This document shows positions 8,265 to 44,783 of a stretch of 64,000 bases of DNA, one piece after another. The position numbers and the translations under genes were made by a program. The DNA comes from an uncultured Candidatus Saccharibacteria bacterium. Its GTDB lineage: Bacteria; Patescibacteriota; Dojkabacteria; B142; OLB20. Below the pieces are notes generated by a model that worked only from the letters and a program-made list of their open reading frames with translations, was not told the DNA's origin and made no database searches. Within the stretch, counting starts at the first letter, position 1; each line of letters begins with the position of its first letter. Location: positions 235,168-299,167 of the forward strand of contig CAYWVD010000001.1 in assembly GCA_964461915.1 (NCBI GenBank), in the 5' to 3' direction.

Positions 8265-8927
8265 CTAAATATTAATAACTTTGGTCTGAACGGCGTCAAC
8301 TAGTGTCCTAGATTTTAGAGATCCGGTAGGAGGTCCGCAATATTGTAATCTAACTTTTGCGATGGAAGAGGCTCCGGTATAAAAGCCCGTAGCCGTAGGA
8401 GAAACAGGAAAAATTTCAGATACTTCATAGAAATATTTTTTTCCTTGGAAATAAACTATAATTTCGTCACCAATAGCTAATTGATCTAAGTATGAAAACC
8501 AAGCATTAGAATCAAGAGCAGTACTTTTGTTGGATACTGCATGTGCAAAAAGGTAGGTGATACCTATCTTTTCAGGAGTTGATGTGAATTTACCGTGCGA
8601 AACGCCATACTCCCAAGATTTACGGTAAATTTCTTCGTATCTTGGATCCACATCCTTAATAATCTTTTTGAAAAAATTAATTTTATCTATTCGTAGGTAA
8701 AATCCTAAAGGATCAATGGTTTCTTCAGAAAATTCTTGAAAAGACTTTTCTGCGGTAGGACCTATTAGTTCCGCAGAATTTTTATTAAGGTTTTGATAGT
8801 TTTCTTCTGATGGTAAAAAACTTCTTAAAAAATCATTAGCTGAGGTATTTGTTAAAAGAAGATTGGTAGAAATATAAATCAAAAAAATGAAGATTATTAT
8901 TAATAAAATTTTAGGCAATACTTTCAT
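8265..8927 (-). CDS. Sortase-family transpeptidase
   Basis: Catalytic triad context in sortase order: LFAHA (His), FSYLDQLAIGDEI..Y.YEV, RLQYCGPP (the TLxTC-like Cys) and KSRTLV (Arg). N-terminal TM anchor. Confidence 0.55.
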   Translation of the reverse strand: MKVLPKILLIIIFIFLIYISTNLLLTNTSANDFLRSFLPSEENYQNLNKNSAELIGPTAEKSFQEFSEETIDPLGFYLRIDKINFFKKIIKDVDPRYEEIYRKSWEYGVSHGKFTSTPEKIGITYLFAHAVSNKSTALDSNAWFSYLDQLAIGDEIIVYFQGKKYFYEVSEIFPVSPTATGFYTGASSIAKVRLQYCGPPTGSLKSRTLVDAVQTKVINI

Positions 8928-29671: not shown

Positions 29672-29749
29672 ATTACTTTTTTACGCTGAAAACTTTATTA
29701 TTAGTCACAATTTTACTATAATTAACAAGTTCTTTCTAATTATATATAT

Positions 29750-29835
29750 GCCGAGGTGGTGAAATGGTAGACACGCTAGCCTTAGGAGCTAGTGCCCGAA
29801 AGGGTGTGCAGGTTCAAGTCCTGTTCTCGGCACCA
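29750..29835 (+). tRNA. tRNA-Leu (anticodon TAG), long variable arm, CCA encoded
   Basis: Hand-folded: acceptor gccgagg/cctcggc, anticodon stem ctagc/gctag with loop cuUAGga, long variable arm, T-arm caggttcaagtcctg, discriminator A, CCA. Confidence 0.85.
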
Positions 29836-32124: not shown

Positions 32125-33177
32125 CTATTTGTTTAGAATAGCTACTTCAATATTAGCTTTAATTACTTCGGTTGTTTTTTCTAAAGCATCCTTTATTGAT
32201 TCAGCTTGGAGTTTGAATCCCGCAGCAGCTTTATGTCCACCTCCGTTTAGATTTTTAGCTAATATACTTACATCAATTGATCCATATATTGCTCTGAAAG
32301 ATCCTTTATATTTACCTTTCCCCAAATCTAAATCAGGAACAAGAATATAGCCCCATTTAAAAGGTTGTAAATTTCTTAAATAGTTATCCATAAAGAAATG
32401 ATATCCAATATTGTAGTCACCAAGATCGAAACCATTTTCAATATATTTAGTGCCAAATTCATCAGACACAAAGCTATAATTACAGACATCCGATTGCATA
32501 TAGTTGTTAGTTAACTCTTGTACAACCATTAATGAATATTTATTTAACATATGGGTATGAAGTTGTAATTCTTCAATATTTAAACCATCACTAACAAGTT
32601 CAGAAGCAATCTTAAAAGTATCATTATGGTAATTATTATTGTACATAAACCTGCCTGTGTCATCGATAATCCCAAATAGAACAGCTTTTTTATCTTCAAT
32701 ATCAATTTTTAAATTTAATTGATCTCTAAAAATTAAATAAATCTGTTCACAGGTTGAAGAACGTCTTTCGTTTATATAGAAATCAACAGGATCCTGATGT
32801 TCTGGATTATGATGATCAAATACTATTGTTTTTATTGAATTATTCCGAATAGAAGCTCCAACCTCAGAAGTATGTTCTCTTGAAAACCTTCCAAATATAC
32901 CTCCATCGAGCATTATTATTAATTCCGGTTTAAGTTCAAGGATAGTTTCAGATATGTTATCTGATTTTAAAATTGCGTTAAATCCTTCTAGAAAAGAATA
33001 TGTTTCGGGTATTGCTCCCTCAATAGAAGCATTAATATTTTTTTCTGGGAAGTTCTTTTTTAAAACATTTAGGGCAAACAAAGTTGAACCAATTGAATCA
33101 GGATCAGGATTGAAGTGTGAGATTACTAGTATGTTGTTAGAATTCTTGATTGTATCGGCTAATATATTTATATTCAT
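32125..33177 (-). CDS. nrnA: DHH/DHHA1 phosphoesterase (NrnA-like oligoribonuclease / pAp phosphatase)
   Basis: DHH motifs (ISHFNPDPDSIGS; DHHNPE) and DHHA1 GGGH (NGGGHKAAAGF). Confidence 0.7.
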   Translation of the reverse strand: MNINILADTIKNSNNILVISHFNPDPDSIGSTLFALNVLKKNFPEKNINASIEGAIPETYSFLEGFNAILKSDNISETILELKPELIIMLDGGIFGRFSREHTSEVGASIRNNSIKTIVFDHHNPEHQDPVDFYINERRSSTCEQIYLIFRDQLNLKIDIEDKKAVLFGIIDDTGRFMYNNNYHNDTFKIASELVSDGLNIEELQLHTHMLNKYSLMVVQELTNNYMQSDVCNYSFVSDEFGTKYIENGFDLGDYNIGYHFFMDNYLRNLQPFKWGYILVPDLDLGKGKYKGSFRAIYGSIDVSILAKNLNGGGHKAAAGFKLQAESIKDALEKTTEVIKANIEVAILNK

Positions 33178-33968
33178 TTTTTGTTAATTTCAATTATTTT
33201 TGTTTCAAATTGCTTAGCAAAAGCAAAAAAATTATAGTTCTTATTTGTATCATAGGGGTTTTCATATATAGATCTGATCCCATTTTCATTCCAAAATACT
33301 CCACCTGCTTCTTCTACAATTATCTGCAATGGAACATTATCCCAGATTTTACTACTTGTACAAACAACAATGGAATATTTTCCTTCTGCTAATTTACAAA
33401 TATCATAAACAGAATTTGAAATTCGAACATTACGTAGTTCTAAGGCGTAATCTGCCAACTTCTTACAATCTTTAAAAGTTCTTTCAGGATTATCTTTAAA
33501 TCCATCAATCCAATAACAACCTAATGTTTTACTAAAATCCATTTGGTTAGTAACATTAATCTTTTTGTCGTTTAACCAAGCTCCCTCGCCTTTTTCTGCG
33601 TAATACAACTCATTAAAATAGGGGAGTACCGCACCACCAGCAATACTAACGTTATTATGTAAAAGCCCAATCATAATTCCATAATGAGGGAGGCCATTTG
33701 AAAAATTAGAGGTTCCATCTATAGGATCAACAACGAAAGTAAATTCAGAGTTGTTATTAATAATCCCAGCTTCTTCATCAATAATATTATAATCAGGGAA
33801 TTCCACCTTTATTCGATTAATAATGTAGTTTCCAATTTCTAAATCTACCTGAGTTAAAACCTGATTATTATCTCCTGCTTTATCTATTTCTAATGTGTTT
33901 TGAAAATATTTTTTAGCAATTATCGAAGATTCTTGTAGGACAGATTTAATAAATTTATCGTAAGTCAT
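33174..33968 (-). CDS. Inositol monophosphatase family protein (SuhB/IMPase-like)
   Basis: IMPase signature VVDPIDGTSNFSNGLPHYG and downstream WD..A. Confidence 0.75.
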   Translation of the reverse strand: MTYDKFIKSVLQESSIIAKKYFQNTLEIDKAGDNNQVLTQVDLEIGNYIINRIKVEFPDYNIIDEEAGIINNNSEFTFVVDPIDGTSNFSNGLPHYGIMIGLLHNNVSIAGGAVLPYFNELYYAEKGEGAWLNDKKINVTNQMDFSKTLGCYWIDGFKDNPERTFKDCKKLADYALELRNVRISNSVYDICKLAEGKYSIVVCTSSKIWDNVPLQIIVEEAGGVFWNENGIRSIYENPYDTNKNYNFFAFAKQFETKIIEINKK

Positions 33969-33974
33969 TTTTTA

Positions 33975-34715
33975 TTAAATAAAATCTATTGGAGTAATAC
34001 TAATAAAACCACTATTTAAAGCTCCAGTATCATAATTAACATCATAATTTTGATTTTCAGCATAATATTTATCGAATTTAAAAATTATTTCATCATCTTC
34101 AATATAAAGATCGTTATAATAATAATTACTCCAATTTTTATCAACTTTTGTAATTTTAATTTCTGAAGTTGGCTTATCGGGTAAGTTTATATTTACAATA
34201 TTTTTACCATAAAACTCTTTCTTAATCACAAGATCAATCAATTCTAATACTTTTTTGCCCGGATAATCTATCAAATGTTCAATATCAGGAGTCGACTCAT
34301 GATCAATAAAGTACTTTTTCCAATTTGTTTTCATGCTAAACACAATTGCTTTATCAGCAATGTCATTTCCAATAGCTCGAACTGCAGCCGAGAAAGTCCC
34401 TGAAGAAATTATAGCAGAACTAATATTTTCACCCGAATTTACACCCGAGATAATAAGATCAAACTTTTCTTTAGTAAAAGCTCTTACAGCATTGATTCCA
34501 TCAGAAGGAGAGCCATCAACTATAACAACGTCAGCATTGCCAATTTTTTGTCTTGTGAAGGTCAGTTTAGATTTTAAAGTCATATATCCTCCAACTCCTG
34601 ATTGTTGAGCTTTCGTTACTATAGCAAAAACATCATGATTTTTTGAAAGCAGTTTTAATAATAGATTAAAGCCAACTGAATTAACACCATCATCACCTGT
34701 TAGGAAAATCTTCAT
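33975..34715 (-). CDS. surE: 5'/3'-nucleotidase SurE
   Basis: N-terminal MKIFLTGDDGVNSVGF (SurE DDG metal motif). Confidence 0.75.
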   Translation of the reverse strand: MKIFLTGDDGVNSVGFNLLLKLLSKNHDVFAIVTKAQQSGVGGYMTLKSKLTFTRQKIGNADVVIVDGSPSDGINAVRAFTKEKFDLIISGVNSGENISSAIISSGTFSAAVRAIGNDIADKAIVFSMKTNWKKYFIDHESTPDIEHLIDYPGKKVLELIDLVIKKEFYGKNIVNINLPDKPTSEIKITKVDKNWSNYYYNDLYIEDDEIIFKFDKYYAENQNYDVNYDTGALNSGFISITPIDFI

Positions 34716-34862
34716 TAGGATTTAATATTTTATTGAAAAAGAATTTTATCGGGACGACAGGACTAGTTACGAACTGATTTCCATCTTGTTTAATAAGGTA
34801 TTATGCCTTGTTGATGAGCTAAAATGTAAATGGCAATTTCTATCAGAATTTTATAATATTAA

Positions 34863-35537
34863 TTAAATAGATAAAGACATTTCGGGAATAATTATCGATG
34901 GCTCTTTTTCTTGTAATGAAACTAACAAAACACCAAATTCCAAAATTTGAGGAAGATTCAAATCAATATATTCCCAGCATTCTTCAGCCTTCTCTGGTCT
35001 TGTATAGTTAGAAATGTTTAAATGGTTTGCAATACAGTCTGAATCTTTTATTTCGTTTATTTGGACATGATCTGTTATTTCTTTAACTTTTCTAACATTT
35101 TCTAGATAACTTTCGTTATCATTGATACCATACTTTTTCATTAATTCATCACACTTCTGATATAAACTCATTAAGTATTTATTATTTTCAAATAACAATG
35201 CTAACCAATAATAATCCTTGTTCATTAGATGATTGGCACTTTGAAATTTCTTGGTCAAAACCCATTCATTTCTCTTAATAACAAACCTGTGTTCTTTTGC
35301 TAATTCGTTTAATACTATTTCCAGGTCTTCAATTTCATTGGTTCTAAACTGACCTATTGTAATATGTGGCGTAGCGCCATGGGGTTTTATCGTAAATCTT
35401 GAACCATTTGAATAAACTTCATCCTTGATCTTCTGGATTTGTTCAATATTAAAAGGTTTAATTAGTATATTTCCTGTCATAGCTTTATTTTGAATACCAT
35501 TCTCTGAACTGTAATTAAATTGACATATTCGTGGCAT
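34863..35537 (-). CDS. Hypothetical protein (possible 2H-phosphoesterase-like; one HxT motif only)
   Basis: ORF with a single H-I-T-I motif (PHITIGQF). No second HxT/S, so unassigned. Confidence 0.3.
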   Translation of the reverse strand: MPRICQFNYSSENGIQNKAMTGNILIKPFNIEQIQKIKDEVYSNGSRFTIKPHGATPHITIGQFRTNEIEDLEIVLNELAKEHRFVIKRNEWVLTKKFQSANHLMNKDYYWLALLFENNKYLMSLYQKCDELMKKYGINDNESYLENVRKVKEITDHVQINEIKDSDCIANHLNISNYTRPEKAEECWEYIDLNLPQILEFGVLLVSLQEKEPSIIIPEMSLSI

Positions 35538-35970
35538 TTACTACAAATATATCAAAATTATCGTGAATATAAAATGGGGGGACTGCAGGACTTGAACGGA
35601 TTAAATTCTTCAAAATGCCTGTATATTGGGCATTTCTAGCGTTTGTATATTTTGGGGTAATTTTTATGATAAATCTAATGCACTTTTTGTAAAGCTCGGT
35701 ATATCAAGCTTTTCTTAAAAACCGTACTGTTAAATCGGGGTGATCGTACTATGTACGAACGGATTCTCCCTCTCATTGATACCATTATCTCATATGTTAA
35801 AGAGTTTGAGTATAAGTGGAAGTTCCTTTTTGAGCTTCCTCAATTAGATTTAAGTTGTTAGGGCGATTGTTTATTATAATTCTGGGTTTAAAAATTACGG
35901 GTGCTTGATGAACATACTGATAATGCCTATACAGATAATTACATATGCTATTAAATATTAAAAACAGCAA

Positions 35971-36216
35971 TTAAGAGGAATAACTAGCCGTTAAAAATTG
36001 CTTTCCATCAAGATTATCAAATTGAAGGACTTTTGATACAGTAGCCACTGCTGAAACAGGTTCGCCAGAATCTTTAAAATAAACAGTATCGCCTTCACTG
36101 ATTCTATCCCAAGGGGCTATTCTGTTCTTATACCATCTTGATTCAATTGTTTTCTCGCCAGAGATAATCTTCGGAATAAGTTCCCACGATTTTTTCATTA
36201 TTGCGATATGATTCAT
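35971..36216 (-). CDS. Small hypothetical protein (possibly PUA/ASCH-like beta-barrel)
   Basis: 81-aa ORF at the edge of the accessory island, adjacent to the IS element. No motif recognised. Confidence 0.25.
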   Translation of the reverse strand: MNHIAIMKKSWELIPKIISGEKTIESRWYKNRIAPWDRISEGDTVYFKDSGEPVSAVATVSKVLQFDNLDGKQFLTASYSS

Positions 36217-36260
36217 TTTGCTGTTACATCTTCTAAATATTTACCTGTAAGTGACTTTTT

Positions 36261-37004
36261 ATTAGGGTCTTGTGAAGATTAGAGAGGATTTTGACTCAAC
36301 TCTTTCATCAACACTTTGTATATATTATCACTTCTGTGGTTAAAACACCACTCGGATTCTTTCAAATGTAAAATAAACTTATTTTTAGGCACTCCATTAA
36401 ATTGTGCTATTCTTCTTTTAGCATAACTCCAAAAACTTTCTATACCGTTTACATGATTTTTTCCACGAGCAAATTCATCCTTCGAATGATATATTCTGTA
36501 ATGCTTGTATCCATTTAAAACTAAACTATCATAGCTTGTCCAACCATCCGTATATATCGTACTATCCTCAAGTATTTTACCCTTAATTATCGGCATTAAC
36601 TGCTTCCTTTTACAATTCTTGACGATAACCGTATATACCTTACCATTACGCTTCAACAATCCAAATACAGGAACTTTACCTTTAGCTCCACGACCTCTTT
36701 TACCTCGTATTCTTTTAGCTCCAAAATATGATTCATCTGCTTCTATTTCACCTGATAACTTTTCTTCATTTTCTGTTAGTTGAAATATTCTTAATCTTAA
36801 TTTTTGATAGATATCTGAAATTGTTCTCCTTGAAATTCCGGTTAATTTACTGGTCTGAGTTGAGTCAAAATCCTCTGTAAAACACCTTAGAATCTGTCTA
36901 AATTTTGCCTCTGAAATCTTTGAACGGTTTGTGTACTTGTTTTTCATTGTCTTGCAAGGTATTTTACCACATTTACAACGTGCTATTCTTCACAAGACCC
37001 TAAT
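36261..37004 (-). mobile_element. IS1595-family insertion sequence (about 744 bp) with ~18-bp terminal inverted repeats; transposase CDS 36279..36947 on the minus strand
   Basis: Transposase has an N-terminal HTH/zinc region and a DDE_Tnp_IS1595-type core (TDGWTSYD ... NHVNGIESFWSYAKRR). Left end ATTAGGGTCTTGTGAAGA at 36261-36278 is a perfect reverse complement of TCTTCACAAGACCCTAAT at 36987-37004. Confidence 0.75.
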
Positions 37005-37268
37005 TATTATTTGCCTCTTTTCGAGTTTTAATTCAAAAAGTTTTGAGAAAGTTTTTTTCATTTAGTGAAGAATACAGATTATTAATAAATTTATCACTCG
37101 CTATTAGTGATGTCAAAGTTAGAAGATATTGTTCCTGACCTGTATTTCCCGCCATTTTCAATATGTTCCAACAAGACCCTCAACAATATTTACAACCATT
37201 GCCTTTCACCTTGTCAATTATATTGTCAATTAACTTGACAATTATTTTACATATCCATATAATGGATT

Positions 37269-38276
37269 ATGATAAATACTAAGTACAAACTAAGCCAAAA
37301 ACTCTTAGAAAATATCTCCTCTATTGAAAGACTCTACGGTCAATTAGAATCACAAGTAGTTCCGAAAGAATTACTTCTTAACCTAGAAGAACACAATCTT
37401 GTTAAATCATCCTTTTCTTCTAACAGTATAGAAGGTAACCCACTCTCTCAAGAAGAAGTTACTAATTTAATACTTGGAGGAAGAGTCCCGGCAAACAGAG
37501 ATGAAAAAGAAGTAAAGAACTACTTTAATATCCTAAAACAGATAGGGAAAGAATATGATACTTTGAATATAGATACCATACTTACTATCCACAAACAACT
37601 TTTGCAAGGAGTTGAGAATCAAATAGGTGGTGAGATTAGAAATAGTAAGGTTGTTGTAGGCAATCCTGCTCAGGATGGAAATATTGTTATCAAACATGAA
37701 CCACCAAAACATACCAAGGAAGAAATTACAAAACTTCTAGAGGAGTTAATAGAATGGACAAATATATCTGAGGAATTACCCATACTAAGAGCAGGAATAT
37801 ACCATCATGAGTTTGTATATATTCATCCTTTTGTAGATGGCAATGGTAGGACTTGCAGATTAACTACTACACTCCTTTTGAATAAGTTAGGATACAAGAT
37901 AAATAAGTATTTTATACTTGATGATTACTATGATATAGATAGAATACAATATTCTGACTCCTTACATTCTGCTGATAGTGGTGATAAGACAGAATGGTTA
38001 GAGTATTTTACAGATGGTGTTAAATATTCTTTACAATCTGCATTAGCTAAGATAGAGGAAGGACTAAAGAACATCTCTTTTGATATGCGACCTACAAACA
38101 GAGAGAAAGATGTTTTGGAATTAATAAAGAAGTACAAAGAGATTACTTCTTCTGATGTTGCAAAGGATCTTGATGTGTCTAGGCAACAGGCTTTTAATCT
38201 TTTAGATGGTTTAGTTTCAAAGGGTTATTTAGAAAAACAGGGTAGTACTAAAAATAGTTTTTATACCTTAAGGTAG
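37269..38276 (+). CDS. fic: Fic/DOC family protein (AMPylation-type Fic motif) with N-terminal inhibitory-helix motif and C-terminal winged-helix-like domain
   Basis: Canonical Fic motif HPFVDGNGRTCR. N-terminal SNSIEGN fits the (S/T)xxxE(G/N) inhibitory motif. Confidence 0.85.
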   Translation: MINTKYKLSQKLLENISSIERLYGQLESQVVPKELLLNLEEHNLVKSSFSSNSIEGNPLSQEEVTNLILGGRVPANRDEKEVKNYFNILKQIGKEYDTLNIDTILTIHKQLLQGVENQIGGEIRNSKVVVGNPAQDGNIVIKHEPPKHTKEEITKLLEELIEWTNISEELPILRAGIYHHEFVYIHPFVDGNGRTCRLTTTLLLNKLGYKINKYFILDDYYDIDRIQYSDSLHSADSGDKTEWLEYFTDGVKYSLQSALAKIEEGLKNISFDMRPTNREKDVLELIKKYKEITSSDVAKDLDVSRQQAFNLLDGLVSKGYLEKQGSTKNSFYTLR

Positions 38277-38325
38277 TTTTTGTTTCCAAAGGATACGATT
38301 TTGCTCTGTTATCGAAACTAAATAA

Positions 38326-39531
38326 TTTATACCAACCACAATATTTATACACGAACATCTCTTAAAAGCATATCTCTCGTCTAGAAAAAACAAACGAAAT
38401 ACCATTAATGCACTAAAATTTGAAATTAACTTAGAACAAAATCTCTCTAATCTACAAAACGAGATATTACTTCACACCTATAAACCATCTAGATCAATAT
38501 GTTTTGCTGTAACATATCCAAAAATTAGAGAAATATTTGCTGCAGATTTTAAAGACAGAATTGTACATCACTTACTAGTATCATATTTAGAACCATATTT
38601 TGAAAAAAGATTTATCTACTCATCTTTTGCCTGTAGAAAAGAAAAGGGAACTCTTTATGCAACTACGTATATACAGAAATGTTTAAGAAAAGTAACTAAA
38701 AACTCTACTAAAAAAGCCTACTATGGACAGTTTGATATTAAAAGCTTCTTTACAAGTATAGATGGGAAAATTTTAGAAGAGATCTTAATTAGTAATATAC
38801 AAAAAGGGTTTCATGGTAGTTTACAAAATGAATTAATATGGTTAACAAAAGTAATACTAGAAAACAATCCCACTCAAAACTATACAGTAAGAGGAGATAT
38901 TAATTTACTCAAACAAGTACCCTCTCATAAGTCTCTTTTTAATGTTTCTAAAAACAAAGGTCTACCGATAGGGAATTTAACATCGCAGTTTTTTGCCAAT
39001 ATATATCTAAACGAATTAGACCAGTATGTAAAAAGAGAATTAAAAATTTCCTACTATACTAGATATGTAGATGATATGGTTGTACTCTCTGATAACCTTG
39101 ATGATGTGTATATATGGAGAGAACAGATAGATACATTTTTAAAGAAAAAACTTAAACTTACTCTACACCCTAAAAAAGATAAATATGGCTCTGTATACTC
39201 TGGAATAGACTTTCTAGGGTATGTAATTAAGCCTAGATATACTCTCTCAAGAAAAAGGGTCGTAGGTAATCTAAAAAACAAACTAAAACTTTTTAATCAA
39301 GGTCTTTTACTAATATCACAAAATCAAAAACAGATTACCCTACCTCTCCATACACCCCCTTCGAAAGAGGAAATTTCTAAAATGTTAGCTATGATTAATT
39401 CTTACTATGGTCATTTTAGACATGTTAACTGTTTTAATTTAAGAAAGGATATATATGAGAATCACTTTGGTTGTTTAAAAGAATACTTAGAGCCTGTAGA
39501 ACAGTATTCATATTTTAAATTAATAAAATAA
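38326..39531 (+). CDS. Diversity-generating retroelement reverse transcriptase; the frame is open from 38326 but has no ATG/GTG/TTG before the RT domain (the ORF track shows only the 39076 ATG fragment)
   Basis: Frame-1 translation gives RT motifs DRIVHHLL, YGQFDIKSFFTSIDGKILEEIL, GLPIGNLTSQFFANIYLNELD (the DGR-specific IGxxxSQ instead of QGxxxSP), YTRYVDDMVV (YxDD), and the thumb/X-like motif INSYYGHFRH. It sits next to the Avd-like gene and the TR. Confidence 0.8.
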   Translation, partial: FIPTTIFIHEHLLKAYLSSRKNKRNTINALKFEINLEQNLSNLQNEILLHTYKPSRSICFAVTYPKIREIFAADFKDRIVHHLLVSYLEPYFEKRFIYSSFACRKEKGTLYATTYIQKCLRKVTKNSTKKAYYGQFDIKSFFTSIDGKILEEILISNIQKGFHGSLQNELIWLTKVILENNPTQNYTVRGDINLLKQVPSHKSLFNVSKNKGLPIGNLTSQFFANIYLNELDQYVKRELKISYYTRYVDDMVVLSDNLDDVYIWREQIDTFLKKKLKLTLHPKKDKYGSVYSGIDFLGYVIKPRYTLSRKRVVGNLKNKLKLFNQGLLLISQNQKQITLPLHTPPSKEEISKMLAMINSYYGHFRHVNCFNLRKDIYENHFGCLKEYLEPVEQYSYFKLIK

Positions 39532-39536
39532 TATAT

Positions 39537-39896
39537 ATGGGTAGTACAAACAATTTGCCTTTGTACAGGAGTGTGTACAAACTTTTAATATATCTTTACT
39601 CTTTAATTAGTAATTTCAAGAAAGAGTATAAATATACATTGGGTCAATCGATAACGGATTGTGCTTGGGTTGTATTAGATAGTGTAATTATTGCTAATAC
39701 CCTACCTAATTTAAAAAAGAAAGAGTATATATTAAAAGCTAGTAATCATTTTGATATGCTTAAGACTCGTATTAGGGTAGCACATGAATTAAAACTAATA
39801 GATAACAGAAGATATACTTTCATTGTTAATCAGTTTGAAGATATAGGTAAGATGTTGAATGGTTGGTATAGATGGAGTAGTAAAGCCCAAAGCTAA
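39537..39896 (+). CDS. avd: Avd-like DGR accessory protein (four-helix-bundle family)
   Basis: 119 aa, predicted helical. The C-terminal IVNQFEDIGKMLNGW matches the conserved ending of the four-helix-bundle/Avd family. Lies between the RT and the TR. Confidence 0.6.
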   Translation: MGSTNNLPLYRSVYKLLIYLYSLISNFKKEYKYTLGQSITDCAWVVLDSVIIANTLPNLKKKEYILKASNHFDMLKTRIRVAHELKLIDNRRYTFIVNQFEDIGKMLNGWYRWSSKAQS

Positions 39897-39899
39897 GTA

Positions 39900-40020
39900 C
39901 CGGGATACACAACGAACTCCGTTGTTTGTATTTGTCTTATTGTTGTTGTTGGTATTTCCATTGTTTAGGTTTACGTTCCATGCGTTTGTTGAATTGTTGG
40001 AGACCTCCGAGCTAGACCAA
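39900..40020 (-). repeat. DGR template repeat (TR), 121 bp, adenine-bearing sense strand is the minus strand
   Basis: 121-bp near-identical copy of 40310-40430. All 23 mismatches are T in the TR (plus strand), which is A on the minus strand. The TR in target frame encodes 12 AAC/AAT codons. Confidence 0.9.
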
Positions 40021-40236
40021 CGCTAACATTTTTCTACTAACTTGTTTACCACTGTAAAACTGATTAATATTTCAACTAAAAAGTTTAACTGTATTTAAAT
40101 ACCTATTAGGTGTAGTAGAACGGACTTAAATATTTGGGCTTTCTCTACTATCTATTGCCTACAGTGAGGTTAAATAGTAGACTCCATGCACTAAGATATT
40201 ACAATTCTAATTAGAAAATATCAAGTATCAAGAGAT

Positions 40237-40267
40237 TAAAAAACAACCCCTCCACTTTGTGGAGGGG
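40237..40267 (-). terminator. Rho-independent terminator downstream of the DGR target gene (minus strand)
   Basis: Perfect 9-bp stem CCCCTCCAC/GTGGAGGGG with a 3-nt loop at 40247-40267, followed on the minus strand by TTGTTTTTT. Confidence 0.5.
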
Positions 40268-40303
40268 TAAATTAAAAATTACTAAATTACTAAATTCTGG
40301 TTT

Positions 40304-41587
40304 TTAGTCCCGGGATACACAACGAACTCCGTTGTAAGTATTCGTCTTAGCGCTGTAGCTGGTACCGCCAAAGTTTAGGTAGACGCGCCATGCGTAAGCC
40401 GAATAGTAGGAGACCTCCGAGCTAGACCAATAGAGAGTATCTGTAACAAATGCTGCTGCAGATTCCTCATCTATACCCGCCTGGTTATATATCCCATCTA
40501 TATATGCTTGCATCAATTCTTTTTGAGAAGGTAAATACCAATCTGTTCTTCCTGCAAAATCTAATGTCGCACAGTAGTTTATTGCTAAACCGCAATCAGA
40601 ATCTAAACCATCATATGAACTTCTAGGTATTGAAGTAAAGTAATCACATGAAGCCATAGTAAAAATATTTGACATAGTACCTTGGTCTGCAGACCAATAT
40701 ACTCCAGTTCTCTCATCTCTCCATGCTATATCCTCTCCTACTGACATATTACTCCACTCTGACTCTTCTCCTTGATAGTCATCAGTTAATGTCCCTCCCC
40801 ATCCAAGATAGTCACCTCCAGCATAATCATCATATGTACTGTATTGCATATTTGTAAAATCTATAGGTGTTGGAGGTGTATATGTACCTGTTAGAAGAGT
40901 ACCTGAGTCAGAGTAAAACTTCTTTCCACTAATTACCTCATCTACTCTTGCATCTCCCAAAAATGACCAAGTACCTGTTAGTAATGTTCCAGAATCAGAA
41001 TAGAACTTCTTACCACTCATTACATCTGTAACTTGTGCATCACCTAAATATGATACTACTGGAGGAGTATATGTCCCTGTCTTTAATGTACCTGAATTAG
41101 AGTAAAATGTCTTACCTGCTAGTACATCACTAGTACTTGCATTTCCTCTGTATGTTACTGTAGGTACAGTAGGTAGTTTAAGAGTACCTGCTAAAAGTTC
41201 ATCATCCTCTGAGTAAAACAGTTTCCCCTCTAATACATCCTCTGCAGATGCATCACCTAAAAATTCAAACTCTTCAGGAACATATGTCCCAGTTTGTAAA
41301 TCTCTAGAATTGTTGTAAAAAGTTTTACCCTCTAATACATCACTCGTAGTAACAGTACCACTAGGAATCCAATTAGAAGCCTCTTGTACCTTTTCAACCA
41401 TCGAATCTAAATCAACATCAGAAAGTTCTTGTGTATATCCTAATTCTACTAACTTACCATATATACCCCTAACATCTTCCTCTAATTGAGATACATCAAC
41501 TTCTTTACTTGGTTTGAAAAAGAGAAACATTATTACTGCTGTAATAACGACACCTAGTAGAAATGAAAAAATATGTTTTTTATTCAT
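40304..41587 (-). CDS. DGR target (variable) protein: N-terminal signal anchor, five ~22-aa tandem repeats (DVLxGKxFYSxSGTLxTGTY), C-terminal DUF1566/C-type-lectin-like domain carrying the VR
   Basis: N-terminal TM (FSFLLGVVITAVIMFLFF). The repeats are VLEGKTFYNNSRDLQTGTYVP, VLEGKLFYSEDDELLAGTLKLPT, VLAGKTFYSNSGTLKTGTYTPP, VMSGKKFYSDSGTLLTGTWSF and VISGKKFYSDSGTLLTGTYTPP. The C-terminus TDWYLPSQKEL ... YWSSSEV ... AWRVYLNFGG ... GVRCVSRD fits the DUF1566/CLec pattern. Confidence 0.85.
   Translation of the reverse strand: MNKKHIFSFLLGVVITAVIMFLFFKPSKEVDVSQLEEDVRGIYGKLVELGYTQELSDVDLDSMVEKVQEASNWIPSGTVTTSDVLEGKTFYNNSRDLQTGTYVPEEFEFLGDASAEDVLEGKLFYSEDDELLAGTLKLPTVPTVTYRGNASTSDVLAGKTFYSNSGTLKTGTYTPPVVSYLGDAQVTDVMSGKKFYSDSGTLLTGTWSFLGDARVDEVISGKKFYSDSGTLLTGTYTPPTPIDFTNMQYSTYDDYAGGDYLGWGGTLTDDYQGEESEWSNMSVGEDIAWRDERTGVYWSADQGTMSNIFTMASCDYFTSIPRSSYDGLDSDCGLAINYCATLDFAGRTDWYLPSQKELMQAYIDGIYNQAGIDEESAAAFVTDTLYWSSSEVSYYSAYAWRVYLNFGGTSYSAKTNTYNGVRCVSRD
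40310..40430 (-). repeat. DGR variable repeat (VR), the last ~40 codons of the target gene
   Basis: See TR. The VR codons at TR-Asn positions now read Y, T, A, S, Y, S, G, F, Y, R, Y, A, Y, Y and so on. The identical 3' flank (coding sense) contains the hairpin ACAACG-GAGTT-CGTTGT. Confidence 0.9.
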
Positions 41588-41689
41588 TTAATATATATAT
41601 ATAACAAATTAATACTTCTTTAATGTTTTAATGGTATCAGAATGTAAAAAATAAAACAATACAAGGGGTGGGTCATAGGACAATACTAT

Positions 41690-42424
41690 GGGTCTAGACT
41701 AGTTTAGAGAGGATTTTTTCTAAACTCTGAAAGAAGTATATCATAAATATTTTCATTTCTCAAATTCCATCTGAACTCTGACTCTTTTAAATGAAGATGA
41801 AACATTTTATCATTTAATCCATTAAATTTTGCTAACCTTCTTTTAGTATAACTCCAAAACGATTCTATCCCATTAATGTGTGTCTTACCACGAGCAAATT
41901 CATCATCACTATGATACACACGATAATGGTCATATCCGTTAAGAATTAATCCATCATAACTTTTCCATCCGTCTGAATATATTGTAGAACCTTCTAGTAC
42001 TTTACCTTGGATTATCGGCATCAAATGCTCTCTTTTACAATTCTTAACGATGTTTACATAAACCTTACCATCCTGTTTAAGAATACCAAATACAGGAGTT
42101 TTTCCCGCTGCTCCACGTCCTCGTTTACCTCTTACACGCCTTGCTCCAAAGTATGACTCATCTACCTCAAACTCTCCTAACTCTGGTGTATGAGCAACAC
42201 TCATCTGAGCTATACGCACTCTGAAAAGATAGTAAAGTCTGTTTACTGTATTACGATTAACTCTAGAATATTTTGATGCTTTTGTTGCGGTTTCATCTTC
42301 GGCAAAATACTTTAAAATTTCCCTAAATTTTCTCTCCGAAATATGTGCTTTATTTAAATACTTATTTCTTATTGTCATAGACTTAATTATACGAGTTTTT
42401 ACTCTATTAAACTAGTCTAGACCC
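41690..42424 (-). mobile_element. Second, distinct IS1595-family insertion sequence (about 735 bp) with 17-bp terminal inverted repeats; transposase CDS 41704..42378 on the minus strand
   Basis: Transposase is a paralog of the first (roughly 60% identical by eye; same motifs SDGWKSYD, THINGIESFWSYTKRR). Left end GGGTCTAGACTAGTTTA at 41690-41706 is a perfect reverse complement of TAAACTAGTCTAGACCC at 42408-42424. Confidence 0.75.
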
Positions 42425-42708
42425 TATCTTTTCACTTGTGGAGGAACGGAACAAGTGAAAATACTGTTTGTTCCCCTCCTATAAATAATAAAAATCAAAA
42501 TTTCTTCCTTTATTTTAATCCTTCAACACCTTTTTCTCAAAAATTTTCAGAAAAATATGTCGGACAACGTTCCGGCATATACGATGTTGCGAGTGAGCAT
42601 AGCAGTATAATTTTTCTCACCGCCTAAGCGAGCGAAGCAATATGGGCGAAACGACGAGGTACGAGGAGTGTAGCCGTATATGCCGTGTTATATGATGTTT
42701 TGGCCAAT

Positions 42709-43401
42709 TCACTCTTCATTACTTTTACCCCAATTGCATTTTTGACATAGTGTTTGTAAATTTTCCAGACTTGTTTTACCTCCTTTTGAAAAAGGTTTTA
42801 TATGGTCAATGTGTAAAACAGTTCCATGATGAGTTGCTGGGCTTTTTCCACAATAGACACAGCAGAAATTATCGCGTTGCAAAACTTTGAGTCTTAATTT
42901 TAGTGGAATATCACGTTTTAATTTTGAATCTTTCGTGTTGATAGGCGTATTTGGAACCTCAGATTTTTGCTTTGTTTCTTCAACAACAGATTCCCCGGTT
43001 TTATATTCGAGAAATTTCATGCAAGCGTTTGTCCAGCCATTAAATCTTGCTTTGTATGTTGAGTATGAATATTTGGGCTTAACTAAATCCCATTCGGTTT
43101 TTGATGGCCTGTGGCCTAATTTTTTCCAAACTTTATCTAATTCCTCAAACAGCTCTTTCTCGGATATAAAACTTCGATCAGTTTCTCGTGGTTTAAGTTC
43201 TACGCCTATTGAATCTAGCGCCTTTTGCCAAGTTCCAAATACGCCGAGTACTTTTGTACCCTTACAAAGTTTTGCAACTTTATCAAATTCGTGCCGAGTG
43301 AATTTTGTATAATCAAAAAGCCCAGCAACTCTTTTAAGTTCTTTTATGACATCCTCTTTGGATATAGTGTCTATTCTTTTTCTGGAAAATTTATAACTCA
43401 T
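42709..43401 (-). CDS. HNH endonuclease-domain protein
   Basis: C-terminal HNH motif CCVYCGKSPATHHGTVLHIDHIKPFSKGGKTSLENLQTLCQKCN. Confidence 0.6.
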   Translation of the reverse strand: MSYKFSRKRIDTISKEDVIKELKRVAGLFDYTKFTRHEFDKVAKLCKGTKVLGVFGTWQKALDSIGVELKPRETDRSFISEKELFEELDKVWKKLGHRPSKTEWDLVKPKYSYSTYKARFNGWTNACMKFLEYKTGESVVEETKQKSEVPNTPINTKDSKLKRDIPLKLRLKVLQRDNFCCVYCGKSPATHHGTVLHIDHIKPFSKGGKTSLENLQTLCQKCNWGKSNEE

Positions 43402-43555
43402 GTTTAAATAGTAATTGAATTGGCCAAAATTTCATATAACTGGTTACTATACGAAGTGTTTTCATAATTCATACAATTTATTGTACTAATTGCGAACTAC
43501 TTTTGGTATAATAATTCAAAATTAACTATCTGTATTTTACCAAACCCTTGCAAAT

Positions 43556-44368
43556 ATGAAAAGCGAACTGGACAGAACCATACGAGAACTAAAAATACGC
43601 AATTACAGCCCCAAGACTATAAAAAGTTATACAAATGGGCTCAGTAAATATTTCAGCTACAAAAGAAAAAACATTGATAAGCTAGATACAAACAACATTA
43701 AAGACTTCCTACTCTACTGCAAAGATAAAAACATTTCAGCCAAAACGAGAAATCAGTATCTTAATGCTATCAAATACTATTATTACAATATCATCAATGT
43801 AACAGATAAAATTGATGTAAAATCCGCTAGACGAACTAAAAGCCTTCCAGTTATCCTGAGTAGATCCGAGATTAAAGCTTTGATCGAAGCCACAAACAAC
43901 CAAAAACATAAAATGTTGCTTGCAATAGCGTATGGAGCTGGGTTACGAGTTAGTGAAGTTGTAAACCTTAAAGTGAAAGATGTAAATCTTGAGGACCTAA
44001 CACTGCATATCAAACATGCAAAGGGAGACAAAGACAGAATAACCATTCTTTCAGATAGTATAAAAGACAAGTTAAACAAGATCATTAGTACTAAGGAAGC
44101 AAATGAATATGTTCTTTCTAGCGAAAGAGGTGGGAAACTCACAACCCGTACAGCTCAAAAGATTTTCTCAAATGCACTTAAAAAGACTGGTGCCAAAAAG
44201 GATGCTTCTTTTCATTCCCTCAGACACAGCTTTGCTACTCACTTGCTGGAAAACGGCACAGATATTCGTTATGTACAAGAATTATTAGGCCATGTAAACA
44301 TCAGAACTACTCAAAGATACACCCAAGTCACAAATCCTCGCTTACGAAATATAAAGAGTCCACTTTAA
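43556..44368 (+). CDS. int: Tyrosine site-specific recombinase/integrase
   Basis: Catalytic R..H..R..Y context (FHSLRHSFATHLL ... LGHVNIRTTQRY). N-terminal SAM-like domain. Sits adjacent to the tRNA cluster. Confidence 0.8.
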   Translation: MKSELDRTIRELKIRNYSPKTIKSYTNGLSKYFSYKRKNIDKLDTNNIKDFLLYCKDKNISAKTRNQYLNAIKYYYYNIINVTDKIDVKSARRTKSLPVILSRSEIKALIEATNNQKHKMLLAIAYGAGLRVSEVVNLKVKDVNLEDLTLHIKHAKGDKDRITILSDSIKDKLNKIISTKEANEYVLSSERGGKLTTRTAQKIFSNALKKTGAKKDASFHSLRHSFATHLLENGTDIRYVQELLGHVNIRTTQRYTQVTNPRLRNIKSPL

Positions 44369-44531
44369 CCAAATTATTATTGTATATAGATCTTACAGGA
44401 CTTGAACGGTGTAAATACCTACATGGTAGGCTTTCCCGTTAACTTACTTGGATTTGGGTAATTTTGATACATGAGGTGTATCACACTGATAAAGTCTATT
44501 TATCAACACTTTTTTAGGGTCTCGTCTTAAT

Positions 44532-44608
44532 TGGTCGGAGCGGTGAGACTCGAACTCACGACCTTACGCACCCCATGCGTACATTCTAGCCAACTGAACT
44601 ACGCTCCG
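44532..44608 (-). tRNA. tRNA-Pro (anticodon GGG), CCA encoded
   Basis: Reverse complement folds: acceptor cggagcg/cgctccg, D-arm gttc..gaat, anticodon stem tacgc/gcgta with loop auGGGgu, T-arm gtgag-ttcgagt-ctcac, A, CCA. Confidence 0.8.
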
Positions 44609-44700
44609 GAAATATATGTAACATTTTATCAAATAAGCTTTAAACAAGAAATAGTAATATGATAAAATAGATCAGTTTGTTTTAAGTTTGTTCTACTTAA

Positions 44701-44783
44701 GCCGAGGTGGTGGAATGGTAGACACGCTACCTTGAGGTGGTAGTGCCCGAAAGGGTGTGCAGGTTCAAGTCCTGTTCTCGGCA
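44701..44783 (+). tRNA. tRNA-Leu (anticodon GAG), long variable arm, CCA not encoded
   Basis: Near-duplicate of the tRNA-Leu(TAG) at 29750. Anticodon stem ctacc/ggtag with loop uuGAGgu. Ends ...cctgttctcggca then tga. Confidence 0.8.

Follow-up and report, generated by a model that had tools for sequence, protein, structure and literature searches.

The stretch of DNA analyzed here (the window; 64,000 nucleotides of contig CAYWVD010000001.1, positions 235,168 to 299,167) stems from a genome of the Patescibacteria, the Candidate Phyla Radiation (CPR). Between surE and a tRNA-Pro(GGG) gene, beyond which tRNA-Leu and tRNA-Asp follow on the right side, it harbors an island of ~9.8 kb (34749–44540). 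The island comprises a tyrosine recombinase gene, an HNH endonuclease gene organized as a cassette, two IS1595 insertion sequences (IS), a Fic protein gene and a diversity-generating retroelement (DGR), all of which an initial annotation of the window had listed together with the tRNA cluster and all of which are present where it had placed them (Table 1). Our data support the view that horizontally mobile DNA has accumulated at the 3' end of tRNA-Pro(GGG) to form the island. Two tandem parts can be distinguished, E1 (35735–44540; 8.8 kb) and E2 (34749–35740; ~1 kb), both of which are bounded by the sequence TCGG[G/A]G/A. Islands of this sort are commonplace, and what makes this one more interesting is a cassette platform operated by, or at least linked to, a Xer-sized recombinase that is widespread in the CPR. 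The window was compared with public metagenome and genome contigs, here named L001–L037, which originate from independent projects and assemblers (Logan, JGI, ENA, NCBI), and about ten independent loci were compared for cassette and element structure. Coordinates are those of the window unless a contig is named.

The best match of the recombinase is archaeal XerA (PDB 4A8E, 1e-40); Vibrio IntI4 is matched nearly as well, in two pieces. Residues 179–198 (20 amino acids, aa) stand where VchIntI4 has residues 183–245 (63 aa), and thus the additional domain of IntI is absent. In TIGR02249, which serves as a test for integron integrases, the protein scores 194 bits against a cut-off of 265. The initial annotation, which spoke of a tyrosine integrase, was right in that the enzyme is a tyrosine recombinase, but it is a small XerA/IntI-like protein associated with a cassette site and not a phage-type integrase with an arm-binding domain. 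No other tyrosine recombinase is encoded in the 64-kb window. The exact protein occurs in at least 35 sample blocks with at least six different upstream neighbors, and one near-identical recombinase is labelled Dojkabacteria. At E≤1e-40 the family comprises 5852 proteins, nearly all of ~270 aa, with names from many CPR lineages. A 76% homologue in L034 is located beside tRNA-Ser(TGA) and is flanked by direct repeats of 144 bp, which are perfect and terminate with the tRNA 3' end, and insertion at tRNA ends is therefore a trait of the family.

Upstream of the recombinase gene, all strains are identical up to TGGTTACTATACGAAGTG and differ past the junction of AAC with TGGTTAC, the differing sequences ending in TAAC or CAAC. 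The junction falls within a 29-bp core site located 115 bp upstream of the ATG, whose left arm belongs to the cassette while its right arm is fixed beside the recombinase gene. This site is kept upstream of 87, 76 and 70% homologues. Neighbors across the site are the HNH gene in the window and, elsewhere, DUF2726, a HinfI restriction-modification pair, another HNH gene, IS1595 and an unknown gene; all of these genes lie on the strand pointing away from the recombinase. Contig L029 represents the empty site, as its homologue of 42429–42568 (…ATATGTCGGACAAC) is joined straight to TGGTTAC. Relative to L029, the window contains an insert of 872 bp (42569–43440) that starts with GTT and ends with AAC, with AAC on both flanks. 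An insert of 690 bp with the same design occupies the same position in L012, and the cassette end TTCAAATTTCGCCTAAC has two different partners, the recombinase side in L019 and another cassette in L023. As judged from these alignments, cassettes are present, absent or replaced at a single nucleotide position. The cassette-free site in the population represented by the window would read ATATGTCGGACAAC TGGTTACTATACG. A promoter scan for Pc yielded one minus-strand consensus match (43562–43534), which is no more than expected by chance. The fixed arm TATACGAAGT is identical to ten bases of the loxP arm, from which the second core-site arm deviates at two positions; this may be a coincidence or may reflect a shared Cre/Xer-like DNA recognition.

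The HNH cassette shares its plan with seven other cassettes. Read on the plus strand, this plan consists of GTTY, an 11-nt arm, a loop of 60–150 nt, the complementary arm, T, GTTANNNGA[TG]T…, a minus-strand open reading frame (ORF), and …A[TT]TCNNNTAAC. Two pairs of complementary boxes result, R''/R' of 9 bp (TCNNNTAAC/GTTANNNGA) and L''/L' of 11 bp. In an end-to-end join the order is R''-spacer-L''-loop-L'-spacer-R', which folds into a long, imperfect hairpin whose bubble has a fixed position and in which the junction is located at AAC/GTT. A circular cassette would likewise bring the boxes together as a single long imperfect hairpin; the cassette junction would join ATTTCATATAAC to GTTCCGGCATATACG, and that of the circular HNH cassette would read …AAAATTTCATATAAC GTTCCGGCATATACG. 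Across 20 pairs in seven cassettes (helix arms picked by eye), 95.7% of the cells pair and 13 pairs have changed on both sides. None of 500 shuffles reached the observed value, and slid partners pair in 29–40%. In a blind check, R'' was used to predict R', and the predicted box was present as an exact 9-mer at the distal end of the first cassette in L030, L034 and L037. The comparison thus documents covarying palindromes at the cassette ends. Within the window, the end motif GTTANNNGATGT occurs once and ATTTCNNNTAAC once on the plus strand among five scattered matches.

Cassettes are also arranged in arrays. A strict chained search for the cassette grammar identified at least three successive cassettes in L030 (a fourth 'cassette' of 4159 bp is probably spurious), and L023 contains three. 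In the window, the HNH cassette is preceded by the recombinase-proximal end of a second cassette (X2), which is 88% identical to L029; a complete cassette that shares this R'' end and possesses a matching R' is present in L030. Across loci, cassette genes encode, among others, nucleases, restriction-modification systems, DUF2726 proteins, NUDIX proteins, dehydrogenases and peptidases. Apart from its array, the 770-kb genome contig L030 (8937–14177) carries an 87% recombinase homologue followed by a second mobile element with HTH_36, Replic_Relax and a large serine recombinase that ends at tRNA-Ser(GCT), and an S51 peptidase resembling that of the window's right flank is encoded just past the cassette array.

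On its other side, the recombinase gene is linked to the tRNA. The initial annotation had pointed to an integrase next to tRNA-Pro, and indeed the 3' end of the tRNA (44532) lies 163 bp from the stop codon (44368), with the same geometry in six contigs. In these six contigs a 1.09-kb module (43442–44534) composed of the fixed half-site, the recombinase gene and the spacer is 99.4–99.9% identical. The tRNA-Pro genes touching it are of four types, 69–88% identical to each other, three with anticodon GGG and one with UGG, and in L012 versus L029 the flanking genes are only 74–81% identical. The recombinase gene and its non-coding spacer are much better conserved than the tRNA next to them. Vertical inheritance cannot have produced this pattern, and the block is therefore mobile. 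Module and tRNA-Pro are joined always between TGG and TCGG, at the CCA end of the tRNA, and module identity stops at 44535–44540 in contigs bearing other tRNA-Pro genes. The CCA is supplied by the spacer X-right (TGG, 44532–44534), which starts with a tRNA-Pro T-arm-like scar (44396–44409). T-arm-like fragments of the respective target tRNA directly past the recombinase stop codon are of the Pro type in the window and of the Ser type in L034 (~8855–8875), and they look as though the spacer had displaced an earlier attachment point. The spacer end next to the tRNA (44510–44530, TTTAGGGTCTCGTCTT) resembles the IS1595 terminal repeat at 36261–36282 (TTAGGGTCTTGTGAAG), which may be due to chance or represent the scar of an IS end.

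The left end of E1 reads TCGGGG TGATCGTACTATGTACGAACG…, and the segment 35735–36008 is present in L021 as well as in five further contigs from metagenomes. There are eight copies of the left end in all, each with unrelated DNA upstream, and most columns are invariant over the first ~215 nt. L001 and L021 part from the window exactly at 36008. The 36-codon ORF within this module could encode a small directionality factor. In L021 and L026 the spacer is joined to the left end via TCGGGG, a junction that is either attP-like or tandem. A second full element, with the same two ends, is present in L023; its cargo consists of genes for a hydrolase, a glyoxalase, a dehydrogenase and a NUDIX protein, and of two IS1595 elements. 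The boundaries of the island are thus defined at the nucleotide level, and the module has been transferred among tRNA-Pro genes. We propose that strand exchange takes place within the hexamer TCGGGG/CCCCGA at the end of the acceptor stem and that the element provides the CCA. The attP junction of excised E1 would then read …GGGTCTCGTCTTAATTGG TCGGGG TGATCGTACTATG, and the empty attB at tRNA-Pro …GAAAAAGAATTTTA TCGGAG CGGTGAGACTCGAAC.

The initial annotation had considered the gene-free stretch 35540–35970 to be one edge of the island. The distal edge does lie inside this stretch, which, however, is not featureless, as it contains the E2/E1 junction (TCGGGG, 35735–35740) and the left-end module with the 36-codon ORF. 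An exact direct repeat of the tRNA-Pro 3' end at the distal edge, which had likewise been suggested, did not materialize: no long repeat of the tRNA-Pro 3' end was found as a distal attachment (att) site, and only the 6-bp core with one mismatch is present. An exact 14-bp repeat, CAGGACTTGAACGG (35586, 44396), was discarded as att core in view of the conserved module that runs through to 44534 and the left end that starts at 35735. The plus strand of 35540–35970 resembles the 5' end of a transfer-messenger RNA (tmRNA), yet ARAGORN (default and relaxed) and Rfam (E≤10) detected no tmRNA or other RNA gene there; the resemblance is due to the tRNA-Pro-like scars. Comparison with related contigs, as advocated in the initial annotation, revealed boundary variation on both sides, with a different left flank in L003–L005 and the module beside four tRNA-Pro genes. 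Since boundary variation and att-like repeats were both found, the proposal of a mobile island at a tRNA gene stands.

Mobile DNA also runs 1 kb further to the left than the limit of 35540 assumed initially. To the right of 34749, L003, L004 and L005 match the window with 98.7–99.8% identity, but to the left of this position they are unrelated to it. The gene for a LigT-like protein, which lies in a segment ~99% common to strains with different outer flanks, is accordingly cargo and not flank. The pseudo-tRNA stretch at 34755–~34790 also comes after the recombinase module in L023. We take E2, which comprises a pseudo-att, the LigT-like gene and an old spacer, for the remnant of an older, decayed element whose recombinase is gone. 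Of all our conclusions this one is the least secure, and the low similarity of X-left to X-right (only ~55–60%) weakens it. In L003 (1007–2100) and at the ends of L004 and L005, the sequences left of the 34749 boundary comprise a truncated gene for a HAD-hydrolase, an IS1595-like end and a DHH (nrnA-like) gene other than that of the window. These take the place of surE and the IMPase gene; the 'housekeeping' flank thus also varies among carriers of the island.

Table 1. Features of the island and its flanks, sorted by position (window coordinates unless a contig is named).
Feature	Position	Strand	Evidence or remark
nrnA-like DHH gene	32125–33177	−	left flank
IMPase gene	33174–33968	−	left flank
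surE	33975–34715	−	left flank
Outer left boundary, core TCGGGA	34749–34754	−	followed by tRNA-Pro-3'-half-like sequence, 34755–~34790
LigT/2H-phosphoesterase-like protein, 224 aa	34863–35537	−	Pfam E=0.003–0.007, sub-threshold; E2 cargo
X-left spacer	35575–35734	+	diverged copy (~55–60%) of X-right; exact 14-nt block CAGGACTTGAACGG at 35586–35599
Distal attachment core of E1, TCGGGG (E2/E1 junction)	35735–35740	−	left-end copies start at or within the hexamer
Conserved left-end module of E1	35741–36008	+	contains 36-codon ORF
36-codon ORF, MYERILPLIDTIISYVKEFEYKWKFLFELPQLDLSC	35751–35861	+	kept in eight copies; variation mostly at third codon positions
81-aa ORF	35971–36216	−	no family match; carried by just one short contig
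IS1595 element A	36261–37004	−	transposase 36279–36947; NF033547, 180 bits; 22-nt terminal inverted repeats (TIRs) 36261–82/36983–37004
Fic protein with C-terminal winged helix-turn-helix, SoFic type	37269–38276	+	Pfam Fic, 1e-20
Reverse transcriptase (RT) open frame, 401 codons, YVDD	38326–39531	+	translation; RT family matches
Avd	39537–39896	+	Pfam bAvd, 62 bits (cut-off 40); NCBIfam DivGenRetAVD, 71 bits, below cut-off 80
Template repeat (TR)	39896–40020	−	starts at last base of avd stop codon; strand opposite to RT and avd
DGR target protein	40304–41587	−	N-terminal hydrophobic anchor; Pfam Lcl_C, 7e-16, 59 bits, above cut-off
Variable repeat (VR)	40306–40430	−	in Lcl_C domain of target
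IS1595 element B	41688–42425	−	transposase 41704–42378; NF033547, 167 bits; TIRs 41690/42425
X2, recombinase-proximal (R'') end of second cassette	42426–42568	−	cut by IS1595-B; ends …ATATGTCGGACAAC
HNH gene cassette, 872 bp	42569–43440	−	absent as a block in L029
HNH cassette hairpin element	42569–42686		arms CGGCATATACG / CGTATATGCCG
HNH cassette inverted repeats, 25 nt	42687–42711 and 43416–43440		
HNH endonuclease ORF	42709–43401	−	
Core recombination site, 29 bp	43429–43457	+	ATTTCATATA - ACTGGTTAC - TATACGAAGT; two 10-bp inverted arms around 9 bp
Tyrosine recombinase, 270 aa, XerA/IntI clade	43556–44368	+	Pfam; NF040815, 218 bits (cut-off 220)
X-right spacer	44369–44534	+	166 bp; separates recombinase gene from tRNA; belongs to the conserved mobile module
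tRNA-Pro(GGG), integration target	44532–44608	−	ARAGORN and Rfam
Proximal attachment core TCGGAG	44535–44540	−	final acceptor-stem bases and discriminator of tRNA-Pro
Direct repeats in L034	6366–6509, 9009–9152		enclose 2.6-kb unit with one cassette (S66 peptidase) and recombinase; smallest complete element seen

The DGR, the SoFic-type protein, IS1595-A and the 81-aa ORF are ordinary island cargo. The TR and VR of the DGR are 81% identical. They differ at 24 of 125 positions, 23 of which are adenines in the TR (replaced by T in ten, G in nine and C in four cases); the remaining difference, T to G, is located 4 nt from the 3' end of the repeat, as expected for the initiation of mutagenic homing sites IMH and IMH*. 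RT, Avd, adenine-specific TR/VR divergence, a VR at the C-terminus of a lectin-fold (Lcl_C) target, the single non-adenine difference, placed at the 3' end, and a hairpin that follows VR are features shared with DGRs of the Bordetella phage BPP-1 type. Unlike in the latter, TR and target gene are oriented opposite to avd and RT, and the RT frame is devoid of an ATG, GTG or TTG start. No stop interrupts its 401 codons, no such start occurs before codon 251, and only ATA or ATT is available near the expected N-terminus (…IFIHEHLLKAY…). For lack of a canonical start before codon 251, the ORF list contained only 39076–39531, and gene callers used for public assemblies report only a 151-aa RT fragment. 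Since TR is on the strand opposite to RT, the two would not be co-transcribed. A strong terminator-like hairpin after the target gene (40268–40246, minus strand) is followed by a promoter-like site upstream of TR (40231–40204, minus strand), and with this site between hairpin and TR, the TR RNA would be transcribed separately and in antisense. In the strain comparison the target protein cluster has a single member. The DGR was thus active in diversification at some time in the past, but may since have become inactive. Between the anchor and the variable lectin-like domain, the target gene contains four tandem units of ~83–111 nt (40884–41266) that are 63–76% identical.

The IS1595 elements, each ~740 bp long, are 72% identical to one another; element B interrupts a cassette, and further copies are present in relatives. 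The Fic protein is a candidate for SoFic-type anti-phage defence by its PADLOC SoFic match (174 bits, residues 10–332 of 335); the NCBIfam SoFic model gives only 49 bits against a cut-off of 550.

The host genome has a low G+C content (~30%). That of the island is 0.32–0.35 as compared with 0.29–0.31 elsewhere, a rise so slight that composition alone would miss the island. Many contigs terminate within the island region, and public contigs often break at the 44.7-kb tRNA-Leu copy: tRNA-Leu(TAG) at 29740–29832 and tRNA-Leu(GAG) at 44691–44783 share 89% identity along 93 nt, a stretch that takes in 10 nt upstream of either gene. A search for an empty site with the exact SurE, LigT-like or S51 proteins retrieved only contigs that are identical to the window or end inside the island. 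Synteny with the genome of the nearest species, which is labelled Candidatus Saccharibacteria (77% protein identity, M3 peptidase), is lost just past an ABC transporter, without a tRNA cluster, and this comparison was uninformative. In L001 (1375–2116; sample ERR14964769), surE beside the island is split into pieces of 160 and 88 aa, which reflects a frameshift or a sequencing error.

With tRNA-targeting integrative islands, which frequently occur as tandem arrays, the element shares the location of the recombinase gene at a tRNA 3' end, a short common core and the restoration of the tRNA end (here the CCA), as well as tandem accretion with scars and a cargo of accessory and defence genes. It differs from them by its 270-aa, Xer-sized enzyme without an arm-binding domain, its core of only 6 bp, and its conserved end modules between which the cargo varies freely.

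Like integrons (PMC4889954, PMC2727003), the locus has a tyrosine recombinase from the Xer/IntI clade whose gene is closely preceded, on the divergent side, by a fixed insertion site, and it has co-oriented single-ORF cassettes of 0.4–1.5 kb with AAC/GTT triplets at the junctions. Moreover, each ORF is followed at its 3' side by an attC-like imperfect palindrome. This contains two paired boxes, a spacer that is asymmetric and unpaired, and a loop that varies, and its structure and not its sequence is conserved. By contrast, the enzyme does not possess the additional domain with the I2 helix. This domain is described as necessary for IntI activity (Messier and Roy 2001, as cited in PMC4889954), and the I2 helix has been reported as the step that opened single-strand recombination (PMC7790495). 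Furthermore, the crossover is located between spacer and R', so that the R box, in some cassettes together with a stem of 13–16 bp, is split across the ORF as flanking inverted repeats; the spacers are 1 and 4 nt and the L boxes 11 bp long, unlike in integron attC; and the whole platform is an integrative element at a tRNA. The cassette platform is not an integron proper, because the IntI domain, a defining feature, is absent.

Two Xer-based systems show further parallels. The pdif (dif) modules of Acinetobacter (PMC6449649) also consist of genes enclosed by Xer-type sites that alternate in inverted orientation, and they move as units between replicons. Yet pdif is a conserved 28-bp site used by the chromosomal XerC/XerD, whereas here conservation is limited to ~9 nt per arm with covariation in the remainder, short non-coding loops make up every second 'module', and the recombinase gene lies beside the array. 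CTX-phi and other integrative mobile elements exploiting Xer (IMEX; PMC3442271) likewise possess two inverted Xer-like sites ~60–150 nt apart that can fold into a forked hairpin site on single-stranded DNA. Here, however, the mobile units are single-gene cassettes, and the docking site lies next to the recombinase gene of the element and not at the chromosomal terminus.

Taken together, the locus is best, and with good probability, explained by an integrative element at tRNA-Pro that carries an integron-like docking site for cassettes. The 29-bp site would receive single-gene cassettes without promoters, on the side where transcription runs away from the recombinase, and the adjacent recombinase would insert the circular cassettes at this site in addition to integrating the element. 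The least certain step is that cassettes would recombine as folded single strands, by analogy with attC (PMC4889954, PMC2727003) and CTX-phi (PMC3442271). For the dif modules of Acinetobacter a purely double-stranded reaction has been proposed (PMC6449649). Such a reaction would, however, leave a second, inverted and covarying site copy in every cassette unexplained.

Several findings weigh against this explanation. The recombinase is devoid of the domain that integron integrases need for attC recombination and of the helix to which the single-strand recombination by IntI is ascribed (PMC7790495), and the fixed site has the appearance of a conventional core site for double-stranded DNA. As the tRNA-end junction and the cassette site share no sequence similarity, the use of one enzyme for both is an assumption. 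Only one complete cassette is present in the window, the choice of helix arms by eye inflates the pairing figure, and a permissive automatic scan for the cassette grammar returned hundreds of chance matches in A+T-rich DNA and was discarded. On the side of the element, the cores flanking E1 are short and differ by one base (TCGGGG versus TCGGAG), and neither an empty tRNA-Pro site nor an empty SurE-side flank was found for this strain. The junctions in L021 and L026 could equally be tandem arrays or assembly loops, L021 having an internal repeat, and no excised circle was found that would be unambiguous.

One might also regard the enzyme as the single housekeeping Xer protein, the 29-bp site as a dif next to its gene as in XerS/difSL, the cassettes as IMEX and the tRNA as incidental. 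The match to archaeal XerA, the very large family across CPR lineages, the inverted-arm site beside the gene in distant homologues and the single tyrosine recombinase gene in the 64-kb window are all compatible with such a role. We nevertheless consider it unlikely, as identity of gene and spacer is 99.4–99.9% where flanks are 74–81% and tRNA-Pro genes 69–88% identical, which argues for recent transfer and not for vertical descent; moreover, the module always ends at a tRNA 3' end (Pro, or Ser in the homologue), and GC skew does not turn at the site or anywhere in the window. A genuine Xer/dif pair could be located in the remainder of the 808-kb genome. A quite improbable alternative assigns only the integration of the island to the recombinase and takes the cassettes for non-autonomous palindromic elements, either miniature inverted-repeat transposable elements or relatives of IS200/IS605, that insert 3' of a short target such as TAAC and are moved by an enzyme encoded elsewhere. 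It would account for the terminal inverted repeats, the subterminal hairpins, the insertion after a fixed tetranucleotide that recurs at the cassette end, and the dissimilarity of cassette site and tRNA junction. It does not account for the fact that every insertion, in homologues down to 70%, is at one site and at a fixed distance from the recombinase gene, nor for the end motifs GTTANNNGATGT and ATTTCNNNTAAC (plus strand), which occur once each in the window. Moreover, the fixed side has the inverted-arm layout typical of a tyrosine recombinase core site, and except for IS1595 no HUH or other transposase is encoded nearby.

The presence of two IS1595 copies in the island and of more in relatives, the many contigs ending here and the possible assembly loop in L021 raise the question of whether, at a hot spot, homologous recombination between conserved flanks, IS1595 activity and assembly errors mimic cassette variation, with no site-specific system at work. 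This is very unlikely given that the junctions are nucleotide-precise in independent projects and assemblers, the inserts are bounded by AAC and covarying palindromes, and the ends of IS1595 are distinct and located elsewhere. An integrase beside a tRNA gene, together with a DGR and an HNH nuclease, both frequent in phages, could finally be remnants of a prophage degraded after integration at tRNA-Pro. Hardly any weight can be given to this idea, because the 9.8 kb contain no capsid, tail, terminase or lysis genes, the left end and the core site have no match in 2.9 million viral contigs, and the L023 element carries metabolic genes. An integrative element with an integron-like docking site therefore remains our preferred explanation.

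In the Patescibacteria, whose genomes are very small, the ways in which genes are acquired and exchanged are poorly known. Our literature search found no description of integron-like cassette arrays in this group. The data point to a compact element (2.6 kb in one relative) that moves among the tRNA genes of different species and docks interchangeable single-gene cassettes. More tentatively, and with slightly less than even confidence, we suggest that the large family of ~270-aa XerA/IntI-like proteins in Patescibacteria runs an integron-like gene capture without the IntI domain, with a fixed site next to the gene and promoterless cassettes whose hairpin sites keep their structure and have AAC/GTT junctions, the whole being borne at tRNA ends and moving between species, which would represent either an intermediate between Xer/dif and integrons or an independent invention. 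Such arrays would escape tools that require the IntI domain. If the adjacent recombinase indeed runs the system, integron-style gene capture would exist outside the canonical IntI family, and this question would be testable with a small enzyme and defined short sites. It would also bear on the origin of integron integrases from Xer-like enzymes (PMC4792948, PMC7790495).

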